Sequence record: MH791409.1
From: Escherichia phage EcWhh-1
Strand: one strand, 5' to 3'
Length of the DNA stretch: 64,000 nucleotides
This document shows, one piece after another, positions 2,571 to 56,745 of this stretch; within the stretch, counting starts at the first letter, position 1, and each line of letters begins with the position of its first letter. Made by a program: the position numbers and the translations under genes. Under the pieces are notes generated by a model that searched no databases, was not told where the DNA came from, and was given only the letters and a program-made list of their open reading frames with translations.

Positions 2571-2990
2571 TTATAGGTCTTCTAATGAGAACGTATCTTT
2601 GAAAAGTTTGTTAACAACCAGGGCTATCACATCCCCATGACAGTCCTTAGGTTTACAGGTGCACGCTATTCGCATACCTCTAAGGGTTTCAAGGTGTTCT
2701 CTTTTAATTTCACCCGATTTTATTTTAGCAATAAAGTATTCTTTAAAGTTCTTGATGTTTTCCTCACGGGTCCCATCTTTAAATGGATTACCCCACATGG
2801 TCCCGCGTTGGATATTGACATCAAAATCTTCTTTATACTTGTTAACAACTCTGCAGACTCTCATTATAACACCAAATTCAGTCCGACCATAATAACCAAA
2901 AACAGAGTACAGATTATTTGAATTTTCATACAGCCATTTTAGCCTTAATGGTAGGGTGTGATTCGTAACCAATGAGTTTAAAATCTTCAT
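2571..2990 (-). CDS. hypothetical Cys/His-containing protein; start uncertain (an internal Met at 2864 would avoid overlap with td)
   Basis: 139-aa ORF between nrdA and td; contains GNPF and CTCKPKDCHGDV motifs suggesting a small metal-binding fold; its 5' end overlaps the 3' end of td by about 65 nt if the first ATG is used. Confidence 0.45.
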   Translation of the reverse strand: MKILNSLVTNHTLPLRLKWLYENSNNLYSVFGYYGRTEFGVIMRVCRVVNKYKEDFDVNIQRGTMWGNPFKDGTREENIKNFKEYFIAKIKSGEIKREHLETLRGMRIACTCKPKDCHGDVIALVVNKLFKDTFSLEDL

Positions 2991-3785
2991 GGACCATATG
3001 CTCTGTTACCCAATGAAGCTGTAATGTCGTGCTCCAATCAGAGAATCCTTCAGGCCAATTAATTTCCAGTTCACAAAGCTCTTTAGGCTCACGACGAAGA
3101 ACTTCTTGACATTGTTCAACGTGGTTAGAATAGATGTGCGTATTGCCGCCTGAGAACACTAAATCGCCAGGAATAAGATTACACATCTTAGCTACAATAT
3201 GCACAAGAGCGGCGTAAGAGGCGATATTAAATGGCAATCCTAAGAACACGTCAACAGAACGCTGATACCACTGGAGGTCAAGATGGCCGTTACGAACGTT
3301 GAACTGGTAAAAGCAATGGCAAGGCGGAAGAGCCATCCGGTTGATTTCAGCCGGGTTCCATGCAGATACGATTTGACGACGGTCGTTAGGCATCTTTTTA
3401 ATGCGGTCGATAATTTCTACAACCTGGTCGACACCACCAAAATCTCGCCATTGTTTACCGTATACAGGACCCAGTTCGCCGCTATGATAGCCAAGGTCTT
3501 TAGCTTGGTTTTCATAGTTTTCGTCCCAAATAGTTTTACCACCAATTAATGAACCGTGAGTACGTAAACGAAGGTCGTTAACGTTTGTTGAACCCGAAAG
3601 GAACCAAAGGAGCTCAGCAATGCAGGCTTTCCATGCTAATTTTTTAGTTGTTACTGCAGGAAAGCCTTTAGTTAAATCAAAACGTAATTTAGTACCGAAC
3701 AGTGCAATTGTACCGGTGCCGGTACGGTCGTCGGTTTCGTAGCCATTTTCCAGGATATCTTTAATTAAAAATTGGTATTGTTTCA

Positions 3786-3798
<13 letters not shown>
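2926..3798 (-). CDS. td: thymidylate synthase
   Basis: 290-aa ORF with the ThyA fold signature (catalytic Cys in PCH context, FNIASY); single uninterrupted reading frame. Confidence 0.95.
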
Positions 3799-4908
<1,110 letters not shown>

Positions 4909-44598: not shown

Positions 44599-45138
44599 TT
44601 AATAACCTCGGTCTTGACGAGCAAAGTTCTCGGCATTTTTCAGGTAATACAGTTTAAAGATTTCTTCAGCGGTCAGTCCAAGACCCTGGAACATATTCAG
44701 AACAAAGTGCAGAATATCAATCATTTCGAATTTAATTTCGAGCTGGTCTTCAGGAGACAAATCGTTAATCAGGGTTTCACGACGTTCAGCATGTTGAGCT
44801 TTCCAAGGCTTCCATACTGCAGATGCATCTTTTTCACCATTGCTCATACCACCAAGAGAAGTCAGAAGTTCACGGAATTCGTCATCAATATAATCTTTCT
44901 GGTTGCGAAGCCAATCGACAACTTCACCCGCAGTGGCCAAATCATCAGGATGACGATTATATTCAGGCTTATCTTTAGCTAAACGAACCTGCAAAGATTT
45001 CTGCATATCAAGCATAACCTGCAGAGGGTCTTTATCTTCGTGAATCAGAGCATTAAAATAAGCTTCTTCAGCTTTATCGGCACCGGCAATCAGTTGAGAA
45101 CATTCATTAAAATGAGCCATTATATTTTTCCTTATCAA
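44599..45138 (-). CDS. 56: dCTP pyrophosphatase gp56 (MazG-like)
   Basis: 179-aa ORF; from MAHFNECSQLIAG the sequence matches recalled T4 gp56 through the C-terminal FKLYYLKNAENFARQDRGY. Confidence 0.92.
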   Translation of the reverse strand: MIRKNIMAHFNECSQLIAGADKAEEAYFNALIHEDKDPLQVMLDMQKSLQVRLAKDKPEYNRHPDDLATAGEVVDWLRNQKDYIDDEFRELLTSLGGMSNGEKDASAVWKPWKAQHAERRETLINDLSPEDQLEIKFEMIDILHFVLNMFQGLGLTAEEIFKLYYLKNAENFARQDRGY

Positions 45139-50633: not shown

Positions 50634-51807
50634 GGTCGCTCACAAAATTCATGTTTTCTAAATCGCTTTCGATGTCAGCAGCGCTTTGGGTATTTCCACC
50701 TAATTTAACAGAAACGTTCTTAGAGACACGAGAGTTAATAAGGTCGTTCACTGCATCGTCAACTTCTTTAATAGAATTAATTGCACCGAGCTTATACTTA
50801 TTCTCGATTGCTTCACGGAACGGAGCATGTTTAAACAGTGGTCCCCAGAACTCAACACAATCGGTAGCTTTAGCACGCCATGCTTTTTCTTCTTGAACCA
50901 TTTCACCTGTGGTTTCGTCAAGGAATGCACGATTATACCACCCAGCTTTAGGTTTCACGACAAAGCCGATATCAGTAGCCATTTCAAGCAATCCACTGAA
51001 TGGGTCGATACCGCCTTCAAAGTTAACGGTGATAGGGAACGTTGACTTCTCTTTAACCGTACGAGATTTCTCAGCCTTAAGTGTGAAGTCATAACCAGTG
51101 AGCTCAGTACCATCTTTAACCTGGCGTTTAGAGATAAAGAACACGGTAGAAGCAGAGTACAGAATACCAGTACCACCACCCATAATCTCTTTAGGATACA
51201 TTCCACCAATTTCCATAGCCGTGTGGTTAATTGCTACACAAGGGATATCCTTGATGGTCAGATAAGGTGTTACGATACGGAACAGAGATTTCAGTGACTT
51301 AGCACGAGTCATATCACCTACAACTTTCTCGTTCAAAGCATCTTCGGTTTCTTTCTTAGAAGCAGTGTTACCAATGGAGTCGATAAAGATAATAACCTTT
51401 TCGCCACGAGTAATTTCTTCTAACTGGTTGGTCATATCAACTTTAAGCTGTTCGACTGACTGGATTGGTGTATGAACCACACGTTCCAAATCAACACCCA
51501 TCGAACGGAAATAAGATTCTGAAGCACCGAACTCAGAGTCATAGAACAAGCAAATTGCGTCTGGATATTTCTTCATATATGCCGCAACCATAGTTAATCC
51601 AAACAACGTTTTAAAGTGTTTAGACGGTGCAGCAAAGATTGTCAAACCTGATTGTAAGCCTGCATTCAACGCACCACCCAATGCAATATTAAGCATAGGA
51701 ATACGAGTAGGAACTTCGTCACGACCATTAAACAATTTAGATTTGGTCAGGTCGGCAGTCATTTTAGAAGTAGAAGCTTTAATCAAACGGGATTTTAAAT
51801 CAGACAT
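50626..51807 (-). CDS. uvsX: RecA-like recombinase UvsX
   Basis: 393-aa ORF; MSDLKSRLIKASTSK... nearly identical to recalled T4 UvsX over long stretches. Confidence 0.96.
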   Translation of the reverse strand: MSDLKSRLIKASTSKMTADLTKSKLFNGRDEVPTRIPMLNIALGGALNAGLQSGLTIFAAPSKHFKTLFGLTMVAAYMKKYPDAICLFYDSEFGASESYFRSMGVDLERVVHTPIQSVEQLKVDMTNQLEEITRGEKVIIFIDSIGNTASKKETEDALNEKVVGDMTRAKSLKSLFRIVTPYLTIKDIPCVAINHTAMEIGGMYPKEIMGGGTGILYSASTVFFISKRQVKDGTELTGYDFTLKAEKSRTVKEKSTFPITVNFEGGIDPFSGLLEMATDIGFVVKPKAGWYNRAFLDETTGEMVQEEKAWRAKATDCVEFWGPLFKHAPFREAIENKYKLGAINSIKEVDDAVNDLINSRVSKNVSVKLGGNTQSAADIESDLENMNFVSDHD

Positions 51808-51884
51808 TATATTTTTCCATAGGCATCATTATATTTTTCTCACGTTTTAAGATAGGGTAATTATATCACTTCACAGCTACAGCA

Positions 51885-52016
51885 TTACTTAATTCCTCGG
51901 TTGATAGCCTTATCGACTATCTTCCGAACTTCTCGTTTCTCGAGCCACACTAATAATAGCAAGCCTCCGAAAGAGAATAATAACAAACCTATAAAAAGCA
52001 ATAGAGGACCTAGCAT
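51885..52016 (-). CDS. 43-aa hydrophobic peptide
   Basis: Translation MLGPLLLFIGLLLFSFGGLLLLVWLEKREVRKIVDKAINRGIK; start overlaps the stop of the upstream gene. Confidence 0.45.
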   Translation of the reverse strand: MLGPLLLFIGLLLFSFGGLLLLVWLEKREVRKIVDKAINRGIK

Positions 52017-52903
52017 ACTACGTCCTCATAACGTGGCATTTCGTATTCAGAATGAATATTGGCACCGAAATAAATGAATTCAGCCAGACCAGGATGGAAT
52101 ACTAAACCTGGGTTCTCATGATAAATGATATGTGGTCTTGATTTCAGAATTTGATAATATTCAACCTTACTCGGTTTGAATTTAATAATCTCTACATCAG
52201 GACGATAGTCTTCGCGCTTAAATGAATCATTAGGGTCGGTGATATAAAGACGAGCACCTTCAGCGGCAGCTTGGTCTACAACTCTTTCGAATTGATAACA
52301 CTTATCCGAAATACGGAATGGATGGAAAATACCATCAATTTTAATAGGCGCTAGACCTTCAGAGTAACGCTCAATTACTGCAGGATTAATTACCTTTTGG
52401 TCTACAAAAATCTTATCAGAGGATGCACCTCGTGACATCAGGACGTCTTTCTGGCATTGATTCAAGACTGTAGTATAAAGTGAACGTTCAACTGAAGCCA
52501 CATCAATATCAATGAACTCGTCGATATAATAACGAGGAACTTCAGGGTCCATTGTGATATTAAAGTTGAATTGTACAGTATGAGCACCATCATAACCGGT
52601 GATATCGGTCACCAGTCCTGAGCAATCATAGTATTCGATTAGTGAATCGACTACAAACTCATTTTCAGACCAGAAATGTTTACGGGTTTCATAAGCATTT
52701 TCTTTATACCAAAGTGGTACGAAATTCAGTTCTGGGAATAATTCAATGCATTCTTTGATATCGCTCGAATTTCTAGGATAAGCCAGATAATCACCTGGAC
52801 GAGCACGATTTAAATGGAGTTGAAAATTACCGTCCTTAAGGACGGCATATTCACCTGTTTCGTAACTACGCATACTGAAAATAGGAACGATAAACAAACT
52901 CAT
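52010..52903 (-). CDS. hypothetical protein in the T4 bgt position; candidate DNA-modification transferase
   Basis: 297-aa ORF, translationally coupled to the upstream hydroxymethylase; no motif I can assign by eye. Confidence 0.5.
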   Translation of the reverse strand: MSLFIVPIFSMRSYETGEYAVLKDGNFQLHLNRARPGDYLAYPRNSSDIKECIELFPELNFVPLWYKENAYETRKHFWSENEFVVDSLIEYYDCSGLVTDITGYDGAHTVQFNFNITMDPEVPRYYIDEFIDIDVASVERSLYTTVLNQCQKDVLMSRGASSDKIFVDQKVINPAVIERYSEGLAPIKIDGIFHPFRISDKCYQFERVVDQAAAEGARLYITDPNDSFKREDYRPDVEIIKFKPSKVEYYQILKSRPHIIYHENPGLVFHPGLAEFIYFGANIHSEYEMPRYEDVVC

Positions 52904-53598
52904 TTCAGGAAACCTCGGACGTAGTCAAAATCACGTTCAAACACGTGTGCACTTACCATGGTGTGGGAATATGTACCTAAACCGACACCACACTGTTCAG
53001 CAATAAATGCCATCAGTTTACCCTGCAGATAGAAATCCAGCTGCATAACAACGGCGCAGTTTTGTGAACGCATATGAGTGTGTGCATACAGACGTCCATC
53101 ACGAATATAATATGTTACCGAATCGGTACACGGATATTCTAGGGATTCGTCAGAATCAAGGAGGGCTTGGTCTTGTTCTTGGAGAATTTGGAACACAACT
53201 CGTCTCGAGTTAGGCTTTTCTTTAAGCTCTTTAAGTAGGGCTGGGAGTTGGGCCACAATTCGAGGGCCATAGAAAGTGTTGAAGTTTGCAGGCAATACGT
53301 CACTTTTCGGCTTATCAATGAACTTAGCAACATTAGGGTATTCCTTAAATGCTTCGGCAGCGTCAGTACCACCAGAAATCATAAATTTCCAAAAGGATTC
53401 GGCATATTCATAACTAATACGATTGATACGTGGGTCGGTGAATTTATAGGTGCTTGCATCCAGTACTTCTACCGAAGCAGAACCAATTTCATAACAACGT
53501 CCGATACGAGAATCAACTGCAAACTGTGGAGCTTCCAGGATTTCTTCGTTCATTTGTTTAAATGCATTTTCAAAACTAACAGCGGTAATGTGTTTCAT
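52900..53598 (-). CDS. 42: pyrimidine hydroxymethylase of the thymidylate-synthase family, dCMP-hydroxymethylase-like (gp42 homologue)
   Basis: 232-aa ORF; SRR, PCTD (catalytic Cys), YYIRD and MRS blocks align with recalled T4 gp42; Asp 31 residues after the Cys (QLDFY), where thymidylate synthases carry Asn. Confidence 0.8.
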   Translation of the reverse strand: MKHITAVSFENAFKQMNEEILEAPQFAVDSRIGRCYEIGSASVEVLDASTYKFTDPRINRISYEYAESFWKFMISGGTDAAEAFKEYPNVAKFIDKPKSDVLPANFNTFYGPRIVAQLPALLKELKEKPNSRRVVFQILQEQDQALLDSDESLEYPCTDSVTYYIRDGRLYAHTHMRSQNCAVVMQLDFYLQGKLMAFIAEQCGVGLGTYSHTMVSAHVFERDFDYVRGFLK

Positions 53599-54131
53599 TT
53601 ATTCACCTTATTTTCAATATATTCGTTCAGACGTTTTAATTCTACCATATCAACATTAAGCAAATTATTATGGCCGTCATGATTTAAGATTTTAAACACG
53701 TTTTCAAAACATGTTTCGTATTGCCGGATAGTTAGGTTGAACTCATCTTTGGTTAATTTAATAAGGTCGTCTTCGAAGTCTTCGTCTAATGGATTGCGAG
53801 TTAAAATAACCTCGATAACGTTAAATTCGGATTTAAACCCTTTCCAATCTTCCAGTTCTACATAAGGGTCCATTTCACCACGAAGGAATCCTGAGTAAAC
53901 AATATTACTTGGATAACCACGGTCAAGGATATAAACGAAATTAGGGTCTAAAAACTTATACAGAGTTTCAACTAAAGCCTTATCGTTATCAGTTCCTAAT
54001 GAAATACACTTGCCATTAATCTTTTTAGGAAAATCAATAAGGCGGTATTTCTTATTGGATAACAGATTTTTAATTAAAGTGGACTTCCCGGAATTATCCG
54101 GGCCGTCTATAACAATGATTTTTGGATTCAT
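53595..54131 (-). CDS. P-loop kinase (nucleotide/nucleoside-kinase-like)
   Basis: 178-aa ORF with N-terminal Walker A IVIDGPDNSGKST. Confidence 0.65.
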   Translation of the reverse strand: MNPKIIVIDGPDNSGKSTLIKNLLSNKKYRLIDFPKKINGKCISLGTDNDKALVETLYKFLDPNFVYILDRGYPSNIVYSGFLRGEMDPYVELEDWKGFKSEFNVIEVILTRNPLDEDFEDDLIKLTKDEFNLTIRQYETCFENVFKILNHDGHNNLLNVDMVELKRLNEYIENKVNK

Positions 54132-54526
54132 GGATGATAGGCCTTATAACTATCAAGAGTTCCTTCACGAACCATTTCTTTAAAGTGGTCAGGACGGATT
54201 GCTCGGTCATCGATGATAAAAGTATAACTCGGCTTATGCGTAAGCAGATTATGATATTTCAATCCAATCTTTTCAAGGTTCTTAACCAATGCAGGAACTA
54301 CTTCAACCAAGATTCGACCTGGGCCACATGAAGTCATGCCACGGGCAGTGAATAATGTAATCTCGTACCCTTCATCATAAAGCTTATTAATCATGGACAC
54401 CATTTCGGTGTCCGGTTTAAAGTTCTCATAATCACGGTCATGGTTCCAAATCGTGATTGTGTTATCGATATCAAAACATAAATGTGGCTTATTTTCTACT
54501 CGATGCGACATTAAATTTTCTTCCAT
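54128..54526 (-). CDS. HAD-superfamily phosphatase (small, capless)
   Basis: 132-aa ORF with motif I CFDIDNTIT (DxDxT) and C-terminal IIDD motif IV. Confidence 0.7.
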   Translation of the reverse strand: MEENLMSHRVENKPHLCFDIDNTITIWNHDRDYENFKPDTEMVSMINKLYDEGYEITLFTARGMTSCGPGRILVEVVPALVKNLEKIGLKYHNLLTHKPSYTFIIDDRAIRPDHFKEMVREGTLDSYKAYHP

Positions 54527-56184
54527 TGTTTGTGGAGTTCAGTAGAACCTGTAGGTTTATATTTTACACCAGTTTCCTGGTCAAGCAAAACCCACTTATC
54601 AGGACAACGAGTAATAATTTGAGCCGTGATAGGGTCACGAACTTCATCGACAAATTCACCAGTAATAAGCTTACGCTTATGAGGATGCCGCTTCAGCAGC
54701 ACACTCAGTTGATACAAACCGTTATAATAAGCACCCAGAGCTTTCAGAGGGTTATTCTTAAAGTAACCTGCCAGCGCCATCCAAATAACAGCAATCCAGA
54801 GCTTGTGCTTAAATGTGCACATAGGAATATCGTCTAAAGGCATAACCTTTTCGATATCAACGAATACACGAGTTCCGTTACGAGTTAATCCACCCCATAG
54901 AGGGTCTGAGTTAAATTTGTCATAGCCATCGATAGAATAAAGCACCTTAGCTTCATCATAAATCGCAGGGCCTTTAGAACTATTACCGAAATAACCACGT
55001 GGGTCGATGATTTTAATATCACCTTCGTCCGACAGCATAATATTACTGTAGTGCGGGTCGCCATGAATAAGTTGGTACGGTTCTTTATGTTCAGACAGAA
55101 TTTCTAGTGCATGGCGGAGAAGTTTTTCGGGGTCGCCTACTTTGAAATCGTTAACATAGGTAATGCCCTGTGGAGCAAAGCCTTCAATCAATCCGGCAAT
55201 AGAAGCATTACGAATAAGGACCTTGTCCAACACTTCTTTCTTAACATCGGAATACCATTGCTCATCGGACGGGTTATCGATAGTTCCACCGAATGAACGT
55301 AATGCACTAATGACCTTATAAACCATGAGGACTTTAGTTTCTTTGGACATAAACCGGTAGGCATCTGCCATGGTACGACCAAAGATACGTTCCATTTTAA
55401 TGAATTCGCCTGGAGAAAAGTCTACAATGCTAGGAACGAATTCAGAATCAATAGAATTATACCAATTGATTTCTTTAGATTGAATTTCTTTACCTAATTC
55501 GTTAGTTGGTACTTTAATAGCCAGATTCTCGGTGAACTCTAATTTATTAAATTCACGGTTAATTTCAGAATCTTCATGGGCCTTGGCAAGTTTCAATTTG
55601 TCACCGACATCAACTACAAAATCCAGTTTACGTTCAGTCAAATAGACCATTGAATCCAGGTTATCAGCAAGGTCTTCGCCATAATTAGAACGGTCGAAAC
55701 CTGTCCAATTGGCTACCTGATACAAACCAACTACACCGCCACCGGTACCAATTTCACGTAAGTACGGTTCTTCAAATGTAAAGCGACAGTCAGTTCCATA
55801 GGTATAACAATAGTCGTTACCCCATTCAACTTTATGACCGATAGGAATGATGTCACACCAGTTAAACAGGACATTATGGCCAATGATATCTTCGGCAATG
55901 CAATCGATAGCATGAGCTGAACCATTAGCAACATCAACGTTACGAATAGTGAATTTAGGCTTATCACCAGTAATCATGTTAATGGATTTAATATAGCCTT
56001 TAACGAGGTCGTTAAATTTGCTGTGAATAACCAGAATAATTTCATCTGATTGGTTACTATACAAATCATACAAATGTTTTAATACCGTATGTTGTTTGTA
56101 GTTAACCAATACCTTTGGGATTTCGTTAGTAATTGGATACAACCGTGAGCCAAGACCTGCGCCTAAAATAACAACCTTTTTCAT
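54511..56184 (-). CDS. bifunctional protein: N-terminal sugar-1-phosphate nucleotidyltransferase domain fused to C-terminal APH/choline-kinase-like kinase domain
   Basis: N-terminus MKKVVILGAGLGSRLYPITNEIPKVLV matches the RmlA/GlmU G-x-G-x-R-L-Y-P-I-T...PK signature; C-terminal region has Brenner motif LIHGDPHYSNIML plus IIDPRGY. ORF-track start is 56214; the ATG at 56184 has a GAGGAA RBS. Confidence 0.75.
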   Translation of the reverse strand: MKKVVILGAGLGSRLYPITNEIPKVLVNYKQHTVLKHLYDLYSNQSDEIILVIHSKFNDLVKGYIKSINMITGDKPKFTIRNVDVANGSAHAIDCIAEDIIGHNVLFNWCDIIPIGHKVEWGNDYCYTYGTDCRFTFEEPYLREIGTGGGVVGLYQVANWTGFDRSNYGEDLADNLDSMVYLTERKLDFVVDVGDKLKLAKAHEDSEINREFNKLEFTENLAIKVPTNELGKEIQSKEINWYNSIDSEFVPSIVDFSPGEFIKMERIFGRTMADAYRFMSKETKVLMVYKVISALRSFGGTIDNPSDEQWYSDVKKEVLDKVLIRNASIAGLIEGFAPQGITYVNDFKVGDPEKLLRHALEILSEHKEPYQLIHGDPHYSNIMLSDEGDIKIIDPRGYFGNSSKGPAIYDEAKVLYSIDGYDKFNSDPLWGGLTRNGTRVFVDIEKVMPLDDIPMCTFKHKLWIAVIWMALAGYFKNNPLKALGAYYNGLYQLSVLLKRHPHKRKLITGEFVDEVRDPITAQIITRCPDKWVLLDQETGVKYKPTGSTELHKQWKKI

Positions 56185-56244
56185 TATCTGTTCCTCAAGT
56201 GAATGTAGGTACATTATACACTATTTTTAATAAATTTCTATTGC

Positions 56245-56745
56245 TTAAATCTTATCTTTACCGTATTCCATGCACTGTTCTACTGCAGCAGGCACTTTGG
56301 TCTTAAGCTTGTTGATTTGTTTCTTATAATCACGAGCCTTATCGAAGCTCTCGGTTTCGAGCATTTCGTAATAACGAGCCTCGTGGACAGAAATCTGTAG
56401 ATTGATATGGTTTACACACATGGCATACAGTTTCTGCTTTTTGTACAAATCATCTTGGCGCTTCATTTCTGCCTGGTGTTTGGCTAGTACCGCTTCACGC
56501 TTAGACTCTTGTTCACGTTGGAATTCGATTTCCCTTTGAGCATATTTTGCACAGTTATTACCACATTGATTATTAGCTCGGGTGTACACAAGTCCAGAAC
56601 CGGCACGGAATTTCATTTCGCCGTCGAATTGTTTCTGTTCAGCTGCGATACGAGCTTTACCAACTTCATCAGCAGAAACTGCATCACCGTATTGGACTGC
56701 GCAACCTGATAGGAGCATACTCATTGCGATAATTAACTTTTTCAT
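56245..56745 (-). CDS. putative lipoprotein with coiled-coil region
   Basis: 166-aa ORF with signal peptide and lipobox (LLSGC). Confidence 0.55.
   Translation of the reverse strand: MKKLIIAMSMLLSGCAVQYGDAVSADEVGKARIAAEQKQFDGEMKFRAGSGLVYTRANNQCGNNCAKYAQREIEFQREQESKREAVLAKHQAEMKRQDDLYKKQKLYAMCVNHINLQISVHEARYYEMLETESFDKARDYKKQINKLKTKVPAAVEQCMEYGKDKI

Follow-up and report, generated by a model that had tools for sequence, protein, structure and literature searches.

The open reading frame (ORF) at 52900..53598 of Escherichia phage EcWhh-1 very probably encodes a dCMP 5-hydroxylase, an enzyme predicted from its sequence to use flavin and O2 in place of methylene-tetrahydrofolate and to feed the synthesis of arabinosyl-5-hydroxycytosine DNA. 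The ORF lies in a 64,000-nucleotide stretch of record MH791409.1, referred to here as the window, which comes from a JS98/UP19-like Dhakavirus and is 98% identical to phage JS98 over the queried interval 51800..56300. Orthology, signature residues, fold, operon and gene content were determined here, and the activity of orthologues was taken from the literature; from these we infer what the ORF protein does and by which catalytic steps, and also which sugar is attached and how many. This enzyme family and its spread, Dhakaviruses included, were already published in 2025-2026, and the finding introduces no new principle.

The ORF, which an earlier note had picked out as a hydroxymethylase gene, is a real gene for a protein with the thymidylate synthase (TS) fold. 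By its sequence matches to Pfam PF00303 (E=3.9e-14) and PDB 9iqu (E=1.7e-126), the product belongs to this family well beyond chance. Cys157, Arg132/133, Arg177 and Ser178 are invariant in alignments with the TS family. The motifs NSRR (position 130), PCTD (156, including Cys157), YYIRD (163), MRS (176) and QLDFY (186) are all present, as the earlier note had said; it matched the first four to T4 dCMP hydroxymethylase (gp42), but the shared motifs are general to the TS family and not specific to gp42. T4 gp42 itself gives a weak match, with 25% identity over 159 residues and E=1.1e-5 in a PDB search.

Cytosine, rather than uracil, is the base indicated by the specificity residue. Asp188 stands exactly 31 residues past the catalytic Cys157, and the same spacing separates Cys148 from Asp179 in T4 gp42 and Cys146 from Asn177 in E. 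coli ThyA. In an alignment with dCMP-hydroxymethylase, dUMP-hydroxymethylase and ThyA sequences, the ORF and T4 gp42 have Asp at the position of ThyA Asn177, and E. coli ThyA, the window's own thymidylate synthase (Td) and the dUMP hydroxymethylase SPO1 gp29 have Asn. As Asn was not seen at this position in the ORF, the claim of cytosine specificity stands, with Asp supporting dCMP over dUMP as the substrate.

The probability that the ORF is instead a second thymidylate synthase or another dUMP-directed enzyme is negligible. Its Pfam and NCBIfam matches are to TS models, and many records name it accordingly, yet the NCBIfam TS scores are 41-63 bits against curated cut-offs of 108-427. The ORF shares with E. 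coli ThyA, Td and SPO1 gp29 the fold, the catalytic Cys and the equivalents of Arg166/Ser167, Arg126/127, Tyr94 and His207, but is only 14-21% identical to these proteins, which keep Asp at position 169 (E. coli ThyA numbering) along with Asn at 177. Furthermore, the ORF has Glu154 where ThyA and Td have Leu143 and lacks their C-terminal tail, which closes over the folate. The window already encodes a bona fide Td, a full-length canonical enzyme (PF00303 E=3.7e-98), and the ORF is not redundant with it, as had been pointed out before.

The closest relatives of the ORF are enzymes that hydroxylate dCMP. Identity is 80% over 231 aa to RB69 gp48, 80% to HY126 AfhB and 71% to the enzyme of Thanatos-2. 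For RB69 gp48, production of 5hodC in vivo was demonstrated by LC-MS, the oxygen was traced to 18O2, and FMN co-purified with the protein; the enzyme of Thanatos, a phage related to Thanatos-2, was also assayed (PMC13326640). A PDB sequence search returned 9iqu (E=1.7e-126) and 9iqc (E~1e-126), and an AF2 model of the ORF product (pLDDT 88.7) superimposes on 9iqc with a TM score of 0.96 and an rmsd of 1.4 A, with 9iqu as the next structural match. The Foldseek entry titles, from which the nature of these entries was read, are 'Monooxygenase dependent on riboflavin with dCMP and FAD' for 9iqc and 'phage HY126 dCMP hydroxylase-AfhB' for 9iqu. The full-length similarity to HY126 AfhB (PDB 9iqc, 9iqu, 9ir2) and RB69 gp48 extends to the same Cys, N169, V173, D177, E143 and A80. 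In a neighbor-joining tree, the ORF groups with RB69 gp48 in a clade apart from that of T4 gp42, the gp42 clade being separated with 100% bootstrap in one run. Dhakaviruses are listed with the groups sharing this synteny for which production of 5hodC has been predicted (NAR 2026, PMC13326640). None of the papers searched reports an experiment on Dhakavirus DNA or on a Dhakavirus protein, and the hydroxylase assignment therefore rests on orthology.

The best non-orthologous match, in both structure and sequence, is the CMP hydroxymethylase MilA (PDB 5jnh/5b6d; E~3e-14, TM 0.83, 25% identity). Unlike what is predicted for the ORF, MilA is folate-dependent, prefers ribonucleotides, serves antibiotic biosynthesis and is extended at its C-terminus (about 320 aa). 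Positions 177 and 143 are both Asp in MilA (PMC13326640).

The signature that separates hydroxylases from hydroxymethylases lies in the folate pocket. Asn in place of E. coli ThyA Asp169 (D169N) is a published diagnostic of 5hodCMP synthases (PMC13326640), and the ORF carries it as Asn180, within MRSQN. The Asp169 equivalent is kept in T4 gp42, two other T4-type hydroxymethylases, SPO1 gp29, E. coli ThyA and the window's Td. Two further changes in this pocket were consistent in every alignment, from W80 to Ala91 and from G173 to Val184, and T4 gp42, COW86c and STP4-a keep D, W and G at 169, 80 and 173 where the ORF has Asn180, Ala91 and Val184. With Asp188 (N177D) and Glu154 (L143E), these residues complete the key positions of the ORF. 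All of a set of 120 database relatives (50-99% identity) share N169, V173, E143 and D177; this separate set is the independent sample for Asn169. Related viral loci were found with a clade-alignment pattern that contained MRS-x-N and are thus not an independent test of Asn169, so they were used for gene context and for other positions. A change from Glu58 to Phe was considered as a fourth marker of the cofactor switch and dropped because the alignments disagree: Phe69 pairs with Glu58/Glu60 in alignment A1 and two others, and Glu67 takes that place in alignment A4.

These residues bear directly on the reading of the earlier note, a dCMP hydroxymethylase like that of T4 and 5-hmC in the phage DNA; on this view the enzyme would depend on folate and the 5-hmC might be glycosylated. 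The ORF resembles T4 gp42 (PDB 1b5d/1b5e) in its TS fold, its catalytic Cys157 with Asp188 31 residues downstream, its acidic Glu154 at the L143 position and its phosphate-binding Arg and Ser. Its chromosomal position, between uvsX and gene 43, is likewise that of gene 42, and it is expected to modify dCMP before replication, with gp56 and gp1 acting beside it. Several GenBank records label the protein 'dCMP hydroxymethylase', and RB69 DNA, as related by citing papers, was first reported to contain arabinosyl-5-hmC (Thomas et al. 2018). However, the 'hmC' of RB69 has since been revised to a direct C5-O-arabinose ether (PMC13326640, PMC13390438). Identity to T4 gp42 is 22-25% but reaches 80% with enzymes of demonstrated 5hodCMP synthesis, and Asp171, Trp82 and Gly175 of T4 gp42, which correspond to E. 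coli positions 169, 80 and 173, are replaced in the ORF. No alpha- or beta-glucosyltransferase accompanies it either: neither the window nor the whole JS98 genome contains a homologue of T4 beta-glucosyltransferase, and neither an alpha- nor a beta-glucosyltransferase gene is annotated in JS98. A folate-dependent hydroxymethylase is therefore highly improbable here. The Asp residue tells which base is accepted and not which group is added at C5, which is why the step from this residue to 5-hmC failed. T4 gp42 uses folate, adds 5-CH2OH and is partnered by a glucosyltransferase; the ORF product is predicted to use flavin and O2, to add 5-OH and to be partnered by an arabinosyltransferase.

The hydroxylase gene belongs to an operon of five genes whose stop and start codons overlap (Table 1), surrounded by genes for arabinose activation and a putative arabinosyltransferase. 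The first 4 nt of the glycosyltransferase (GT) gene are shared with the end of the hydroxylase gene. The GT gene stands immediately after the hydroxylase gene in 38 of the 47 related viral loci, and the thymidylate-kinase-like gene adjoins these two in most of them. The RB69 orthologue of the GT was modelled as a GT-B-like enzyme and its function as base-proximal arabinosyltransferase was proposed, not demonstrated; because the enzyme was inactive in vitro, its role is a proposal (PMC13326640). The HAD-family phosphatase is orthologous to AfhF and RB69 gp51, which convert arabinofuranose-1,5-bisphosphate to Araf-1-P (PMC13326640). For the AfhE-like enzyme, the program's ORF reaches 56214, but a likelier ATG at 56184 stands behind a GAGGA ribosome-binding site, and the JS98 annotation gives a protein of 557 aa. 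A candidate promoter occupies the gap upstream of the operon; sigma-70-like sites in the region are no more numerous than in shuffles, and this site rests on its consensus match only.

Table 1. Coordinates and supporting matches of the operon and of related nucleotide-metabolism genes in the window.
Feature	Coordinates	Strand	Evidence
dCMP 5-hydroxylase / 5hodCMP synthase candidate (AfhB, RB69 gp48 orthologue)	52900..53598	(-)	ATG start, 232 aa, TS fold
Predicted glycosyltransferase, RB69 gp46:47 orthologue ('arabinosyltransferase 1', base-proximal GT), 297 aa	52010..52903	(-)	65-70% identity to RB69 gp46 and gp47; PHROG 3891 E=9.5e-159; no Pfam or PDB sequence match
P-loop thymidylate-kinase-like nucleotide kinase, RB69 gp45-like	53595..54131	(-)	38% identity to RB69 gp45; PHROG 761 E=1.5e-39; weak cmk/TMK matches
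HAD-family phosphatase, AfhF / RB69 gp51 orthologue	54128..54526	(-)	PDB 9iqw E=5.3e-54; 62% identity to RB69 gp51; TIGR01689 E=1.3e-14
Bifunctional sugar kinase / NDP-sugar pyrophosphorylase, AfhE / RB69 gp52:53 orthologue	54511..56184	(-)	Pfam NTP_transferase and APH kinase; 41-44% identity to RB69 gp52 and gp53; PHROG 4098 E=1.3e-267, aligned from residue 11
Candidate sigma-70-like promoter TAGAAA-16-TATAAT	56213..56240	(-)	10/12 consensus match
gp56 dCTPase/dUTPase	44599..45138	(-)	PHROG 173 E=1.6e-46; Pfam dUTPase_2; likely start ATG at 45120; 'gp56 dCTPase' in JS98 annotation
Td, canonical folate-dependent thymidylate synthase	2926..3798	(-)	Asp at 169, Asn at 177; likely start internal Met5 (ATG at 3786); JS98 annotation
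Frd, dihydrofolate reductase, Td partner	3989..4570	(-)	Pfam DHFR_1 E=2.5e-18; JS98 annotation

The ORF, HY126 AfhB and RB69 gp48 have the same neighbours (GT1, AfhF, AfhE and a TMK-like kinase) and share the slot between uvsX and gene 43. Gene order differs, in that the Dhakavirus kinase gene is placed between those for the hydroxylase and the phosphatase and not next to uvsX. RB69 gp49, gp50, gp55 (arabinose-5-phosphate, or A5P, isomerase) and gp3 (second arabinosyltransferase) are absent from the Dhakavirus cluster. The U32-like gp50 and the A5P isomerase occur in most relatives, and the whole JS98 genome contains no A5P isomerase, no gp50, no second arabinosyltransferase and no other gp42-like gene. 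With five genes and one glycosyltransferase, the predicted Dhakavirus version is the most reduced 5-hydroxycytosine glycosylation pathway in the survey. Genes for gp56, gp1, cd, alc, denA and denB are present in JS98.

In the proposed mechanism, which retains the nucleotide chemistry of TS enzymes, Cys157 would add to C6 of dCMP and Asp188 would read the N3/N4 face of the cytosine; a flavin-derived oxygen species would oxygenate the activated C5, and the Cys would then leave to give 5-hydroxy-dCMP. The gp56 dCTPase would both supply dCMP and remove dCTP. Then gp1, the phage dNMP kinase encoded outside the window, and the NDP kinase of the host would make 5hodCTP, which the gp43 polymerase would build into the DNA instead of C. 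Starting from arabinose-5-phosphate, the co-transcribed AfhE-like and AfhF-like enzymes would produce UDP-arabinofuranose, and the adjacent glycosyltransferase would join arabinose to the 5-OH by an ether bond. The arabinose-5-phosphate is probably derived from the host, since the phage is without its own isomerase; E. coli produces A5P itself via KdsD/GutQ. The phage DNA most likely carries (mono-)arabinosyl-5-hydroxycytosine, the mono-arabinosyl state being expected because there is only one glycosyltransferase. Thanatos, with a single syntenic GT, is mono-arabinosylated (PMC13326640).

The sugar part of this pathway is less certain than the hydroxylation because the AfhE-like enzyme is divergent and the A5P isomerase and gp50 are absent. 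The hydroxylase could be correctly assigned and the final modification still differ from the arabinofuranose of RB69, HY126 and DLP3, whether as another pentose or a hexose or as a fraction of unglycosylated 5hoC. The AfhE-like enzyme is an outlier, with 41-45% identity to its counterparts in RB69, KARL-1 and Thanatos, whose mutual identity is 52-64%, and the absence from JS98 of an A5P isomerase, gp50 and a second GT points the same way. The base does not fix the sugar, as 5hoC bears galactose and glucose in Rhizobium phage RL38J1. Nevertheless, such a departure is unlikely: the glycosyltransferase, which would have to recognise the donor, has 65-70% identity to RB69 gp46:47, the AfhF orthologue retains 62% identity, and AfhE has kept its domain architecture. 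No A5P isomerase lies within 9 kb of the Thanatos-2 cluster either, and Thanatos is reported to be mono-arabinosylated, and it is established that E. coli's own KdsD/GutQ make A5P. There is a small chance that Dhakavirus DNA carries a C5-O-glycosyl cytosine unlike the known arabinofuranosides, with a different sugar or a strict dependence on host KdsD/GutQ for the precursor.

Arabinosyl-5-hydroxycytosine is the preferred prediction, with consequences for annotation and for phage biology. Database entries for this gene commonly carry a wrong name, either 'thymidylate synthase' or 'dCMP hydroxymethylase'. Hydroxymethylases and hydroxylases cannot be told apart by the Asp specificity residue alone but can be by the D169N position, which makes D169N worth checking in any phage TS homologue with Asp177. 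The genome paper on JS98 by Zuber et al. in 2007 reportedly describes a phage assessed for medical use, and DNA modification matters for JS98-type phages for that reason. Predicted arabinosyl-5-hydroxycytosine instead of 5-hmC would alter which restriction, CRISPR and type IV systems are evaded or triggered. The product of this ORF, as a predicted hydroxylase, would take the first step towards arabinose-decorated phage DNA.

The window comes from a Dhakavirus, one of the T4-like phages; over the 4.5 kb around the ORF under study, identity is 99.6% to Escherichia phage UP19 and 98.2% to both JS98 and JS10. The ORF starts at ATG, encodes 232 aa of the thymidylate synthase family (PF00303, E=3.9e-14), and carries NSRR at residue 130, PCTD at 156 (catalytic Cys157), YYIRD at 163, MRS at 176, and QLDFY at 186, with exactly 31 residues from Cys157 to Asp188. 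The earlier note had described these motifs correctly, and was also right that the enzyme is not redundant with the separate canonical thymidylate synthase (Td), which is full length. The td gene adjoins a dihydrofolate reductase gene and, unlike T4 td, is continuous, with no group I intron. Translation of td likely starts at the ATG of Met5 (3786), four codons into a mechanical ORF that opens with TTG, and the 3′ end of the gene is overlapped by an NrdA.1-like ORF of 139 aa.

The ORF was aligned with T4-type hydroxymethylases (T4 gp42, Erwinia phage COW86c, and Salmonella phage STP4-a), further folate-dependent members (the dUMP hydroxymethylase SPO1 gp29, E. coli ThyA, and the window Td), and relatives from RB69 (gp48), Shewanella phage Thanatos-2, Acinetobacter phage KARL-1, Tenacibaculum phage PTm1, and Rhizobium phage IG49. 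At the N177 position (E. coli ThyA numbering), ThyA, Td, and SPO1 gp29 have Asn, while T4 gp42 and the ORF have Asp, which points to cytosine rather than uracil as the likely substrate and upholds the earlier argument for cytosine specificity. A second partition lies eight residues upstream (QRSCD169VFLGLPFN177 in E. coli, MRSND..GFRND in T4 gp42, and MRSQN180CAVVMQLD188 in the ORF), where every folate-dependent enzyme of the set has Asp, and the ORF, RB69 gp48, Thanatos-2, KARL-1, PTm1, and IG49 have Asn. Every alignment made also replaced E. coli Trp80 with Ala91 and Gly173 with Val184 in the ORF, at positions that line the folate pocket in thymidylate synthase structures. Glu58, a candidate fourth difference, was not relied on, its counterpart being alignment-dependent (Phe69 in alignment A1, Glu67 in A4). 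An independent database sample of relatives sharing 50-99% identity had N169, V173, E143, and D177 in every member (120 of 120).

Over 231 residues the ORF shares 80% identity with RB69 gp48, versus about 25% with T4 gp42, and in a neighbour-joining tree it groups with RB69 gp48 in a clade distinct from that of gp42. Its best PDB sequence matches are 9iqu, 9iqc, and 9ir2 (E~1e-126). An AlphaFold model of the ORF (59 family sequences, pLDDT 88.7) superimposes on 9iqc, titled "Monooxygenase dependent on riboflavin with dCMP and FAD", with a TM score of 0.96 and an rmsd of 1.4 Å; 9iqu bears the title "phage HY126 dCMP hydroxylase-AfhB with substrate dCMP". After these, the closest structures are MilA (25% identity) and ordinary thymidylate synthases. 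As reported in PMC13326640 (NAR 2026), dCMP is converted to 5-hydroxy-dCMP, not 5-hydroxymethyl-dCMP, by gp48 of RB69 and gp80 of Acinetobacter phage DLP3. LC-MS comparison with a standard established the product there, 18O2 supplied the oxygen, and the enzymes, yellow when purified, released FMN. D169N was proposed as the diagnostic residue, and 5hodC was also formed by each of nine other homologues with D169N, among them the Thanatos and Rhizobium phage RL38J1 enzymes (PMC13326640). In RB69 DNA, arabinose is joined directly to C5 via an ether oxygen, correcting an earlier report of arabinosyl-hmC (PMC13326640; PMC13390438). Published work already covers this enzyme family, the signature, and the occurrence of the enzyme in Dhakaviruses.

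Asn at 169 and the closeness to a 5-hydroxy-dCMP-forming enzyme run against the 5-hmC product proposed in the earlier note, and the DNA base is most likely 5-hydroxycytosine bearing arabinose. Orthology, signature, and fold are direct observations, whereas the enzymology is taken from the orthologues: the protein is most likely a flavin- and O2-dependent C5 hydroxylase of dCMP built on a thymidylate synthase scaffold, and 5-hydroxy-dCMP would then be phosphorylated and built into DNA instead of dC.

The gene content, likewise observed, places the ORF in a modification operon of five minus-strand genes with overlapping stop and start codons, which the JS98 annotation labels RB69 orf052c-, 051c-, 045c-, 048c-, and 047c-like. 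The co-transcribed enzymes would produce UDP-arabinofuranose, and the adjoining transferase, homologous to the proposed base-proximal arabinosyltransferase RB69 gp46:47 (PMC13326640), would link arabinofuranose to the 5-OH. Among 47 related viral loci, 38 have a homologue of this glycosyltransferase directly after the hydroxylase gene, and most of the loci keep the P-loop kinase beside the pair. The published pathway, in which a gp1-type dNMP kinase already phosphorylates 5hodCMP, has no step for a thymidylate-kinase-like enzyme.

Coordinates of features in the window
Feature	Position	Strand	Remarks
NrdA.1-like ORF	2571..2990		139 aa
Thymidylate synthase (td)	2926..3798	-	E=3.7e-98
RB69 gp46:47 homologue	52010..52903	-	297 aa; 65-70% identity; operon gene 5
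Hydroxylase (ORF)	52900..53598	-	operon gene 4
Thymidylate-kinase-like P-loop kinase	53595..54131	-	operon gene 3
AfhF-like HAD phosphatase	54128..54526	-	PDB 9iqw, E=5e-54; operon gene 2
AfhE-like sugar kinase + nucleotidyltransferase	54511..56184	-	bifunctional; Pfam NTP_transferase + APH; operon gene 1
Sigma-70-like promoter site	56240..56213	-	upstream of operon; consensus match only (10/12)
Lipoprotein-type ORF	56245..56745	-	166 aa

The mechanical AfhE-like ORF (54511..56214) begins at an ATG that overlaps the promoter -10 hexamer (TATAATG); translation probably begins instead at the ATG at 56184, which is preceded by GAGGA, consistent with the 557-aa JS98 annotation and a PHROG alignment from residue 11. 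The 166-aa ORF has a lipoprotein-type signal (MKKLIIAMSMLLSGC) and is flanked by the operon on one side and by the gp54-like and imm genes on the other. Its matches are PHROG 1754 (function unknown) and JS98 orf43; it has no Pfam assignment, and RB69 lacks a counterpart at this position. The Thanatos-2 HAD-phosphatase homologue (L004 8430..9020) is annotated at 196 aa versus 126-132 aa elsewhere, which may reflect an extension or a mis-called start, because only about 100 residues align.

Searches by tblastn of the window and the complete JS98 genome found no second gp42-like gene, no T4 beta-glucosyltransferase, and no homologue of RB69 gp3 (second arabinosyltransferase), gp49, gp50, or gp55 (arabinose-5-phosphate isomerase). 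Most arabinosylating relatives have gp55, the U32-peptidase-like gp50, gp49, and gp3, which Dhakaviruses (the whole window and the JS98 genome, L011 and L013-L015) lack, and the Dhakavirus modification cluster is the smallest among the 47 loci. The T-even cytosine-exclusion apparatus is represented by gp56 dCTPase in the window and by gp1 dNMP kinase, cd, alc, denA, and denB elsewhere in JS98.

Because the phage has no isomerase, arabinose-5-phosphate would presumably come from host KdsD/GutQ; no isomerase was found within 9 kb of the Thanatos-2 cluster either. Thanatos, which has only the syntenic transferase, is mono-arabinosylated (PMC13326640), and by analogy the likewise single transferase of Dhakavirus leads us to expect mono-arabinosyl-5-hydroxycytosine, in which the sugar and its copy number are inferred. 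The literature searched yielded no experiments on the DNA of any Dhakavirus. Identity of the AfhE-like enzyme to its RB69, KARL-1, and Thanatos-2 counterparts is only 41-45%, and those counterparts share 52-64% among themselves; the adjoining hydroxylase, in contrast, is nearest to that of RB69 (80%). Taken together with the absent isomerase and gp50, this divergence could mean that a different sugar decorates Dhakavirus 5-hydroxycytosine, but that is quite improbable given a transferase 65-70% identical to that of RB69, and arabinose is preferred. Three Klebsiella-phage loci (L021, L022, and L056) share with the window both the divergent AfhE (79-80% identity) and the kinase (78-85%), which suggests that the sugar-activation module was swapped as one unit. 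The practical lesson for this family is that Asp177 tells which base is accepted, and position 169 tells the chemistry at C5.
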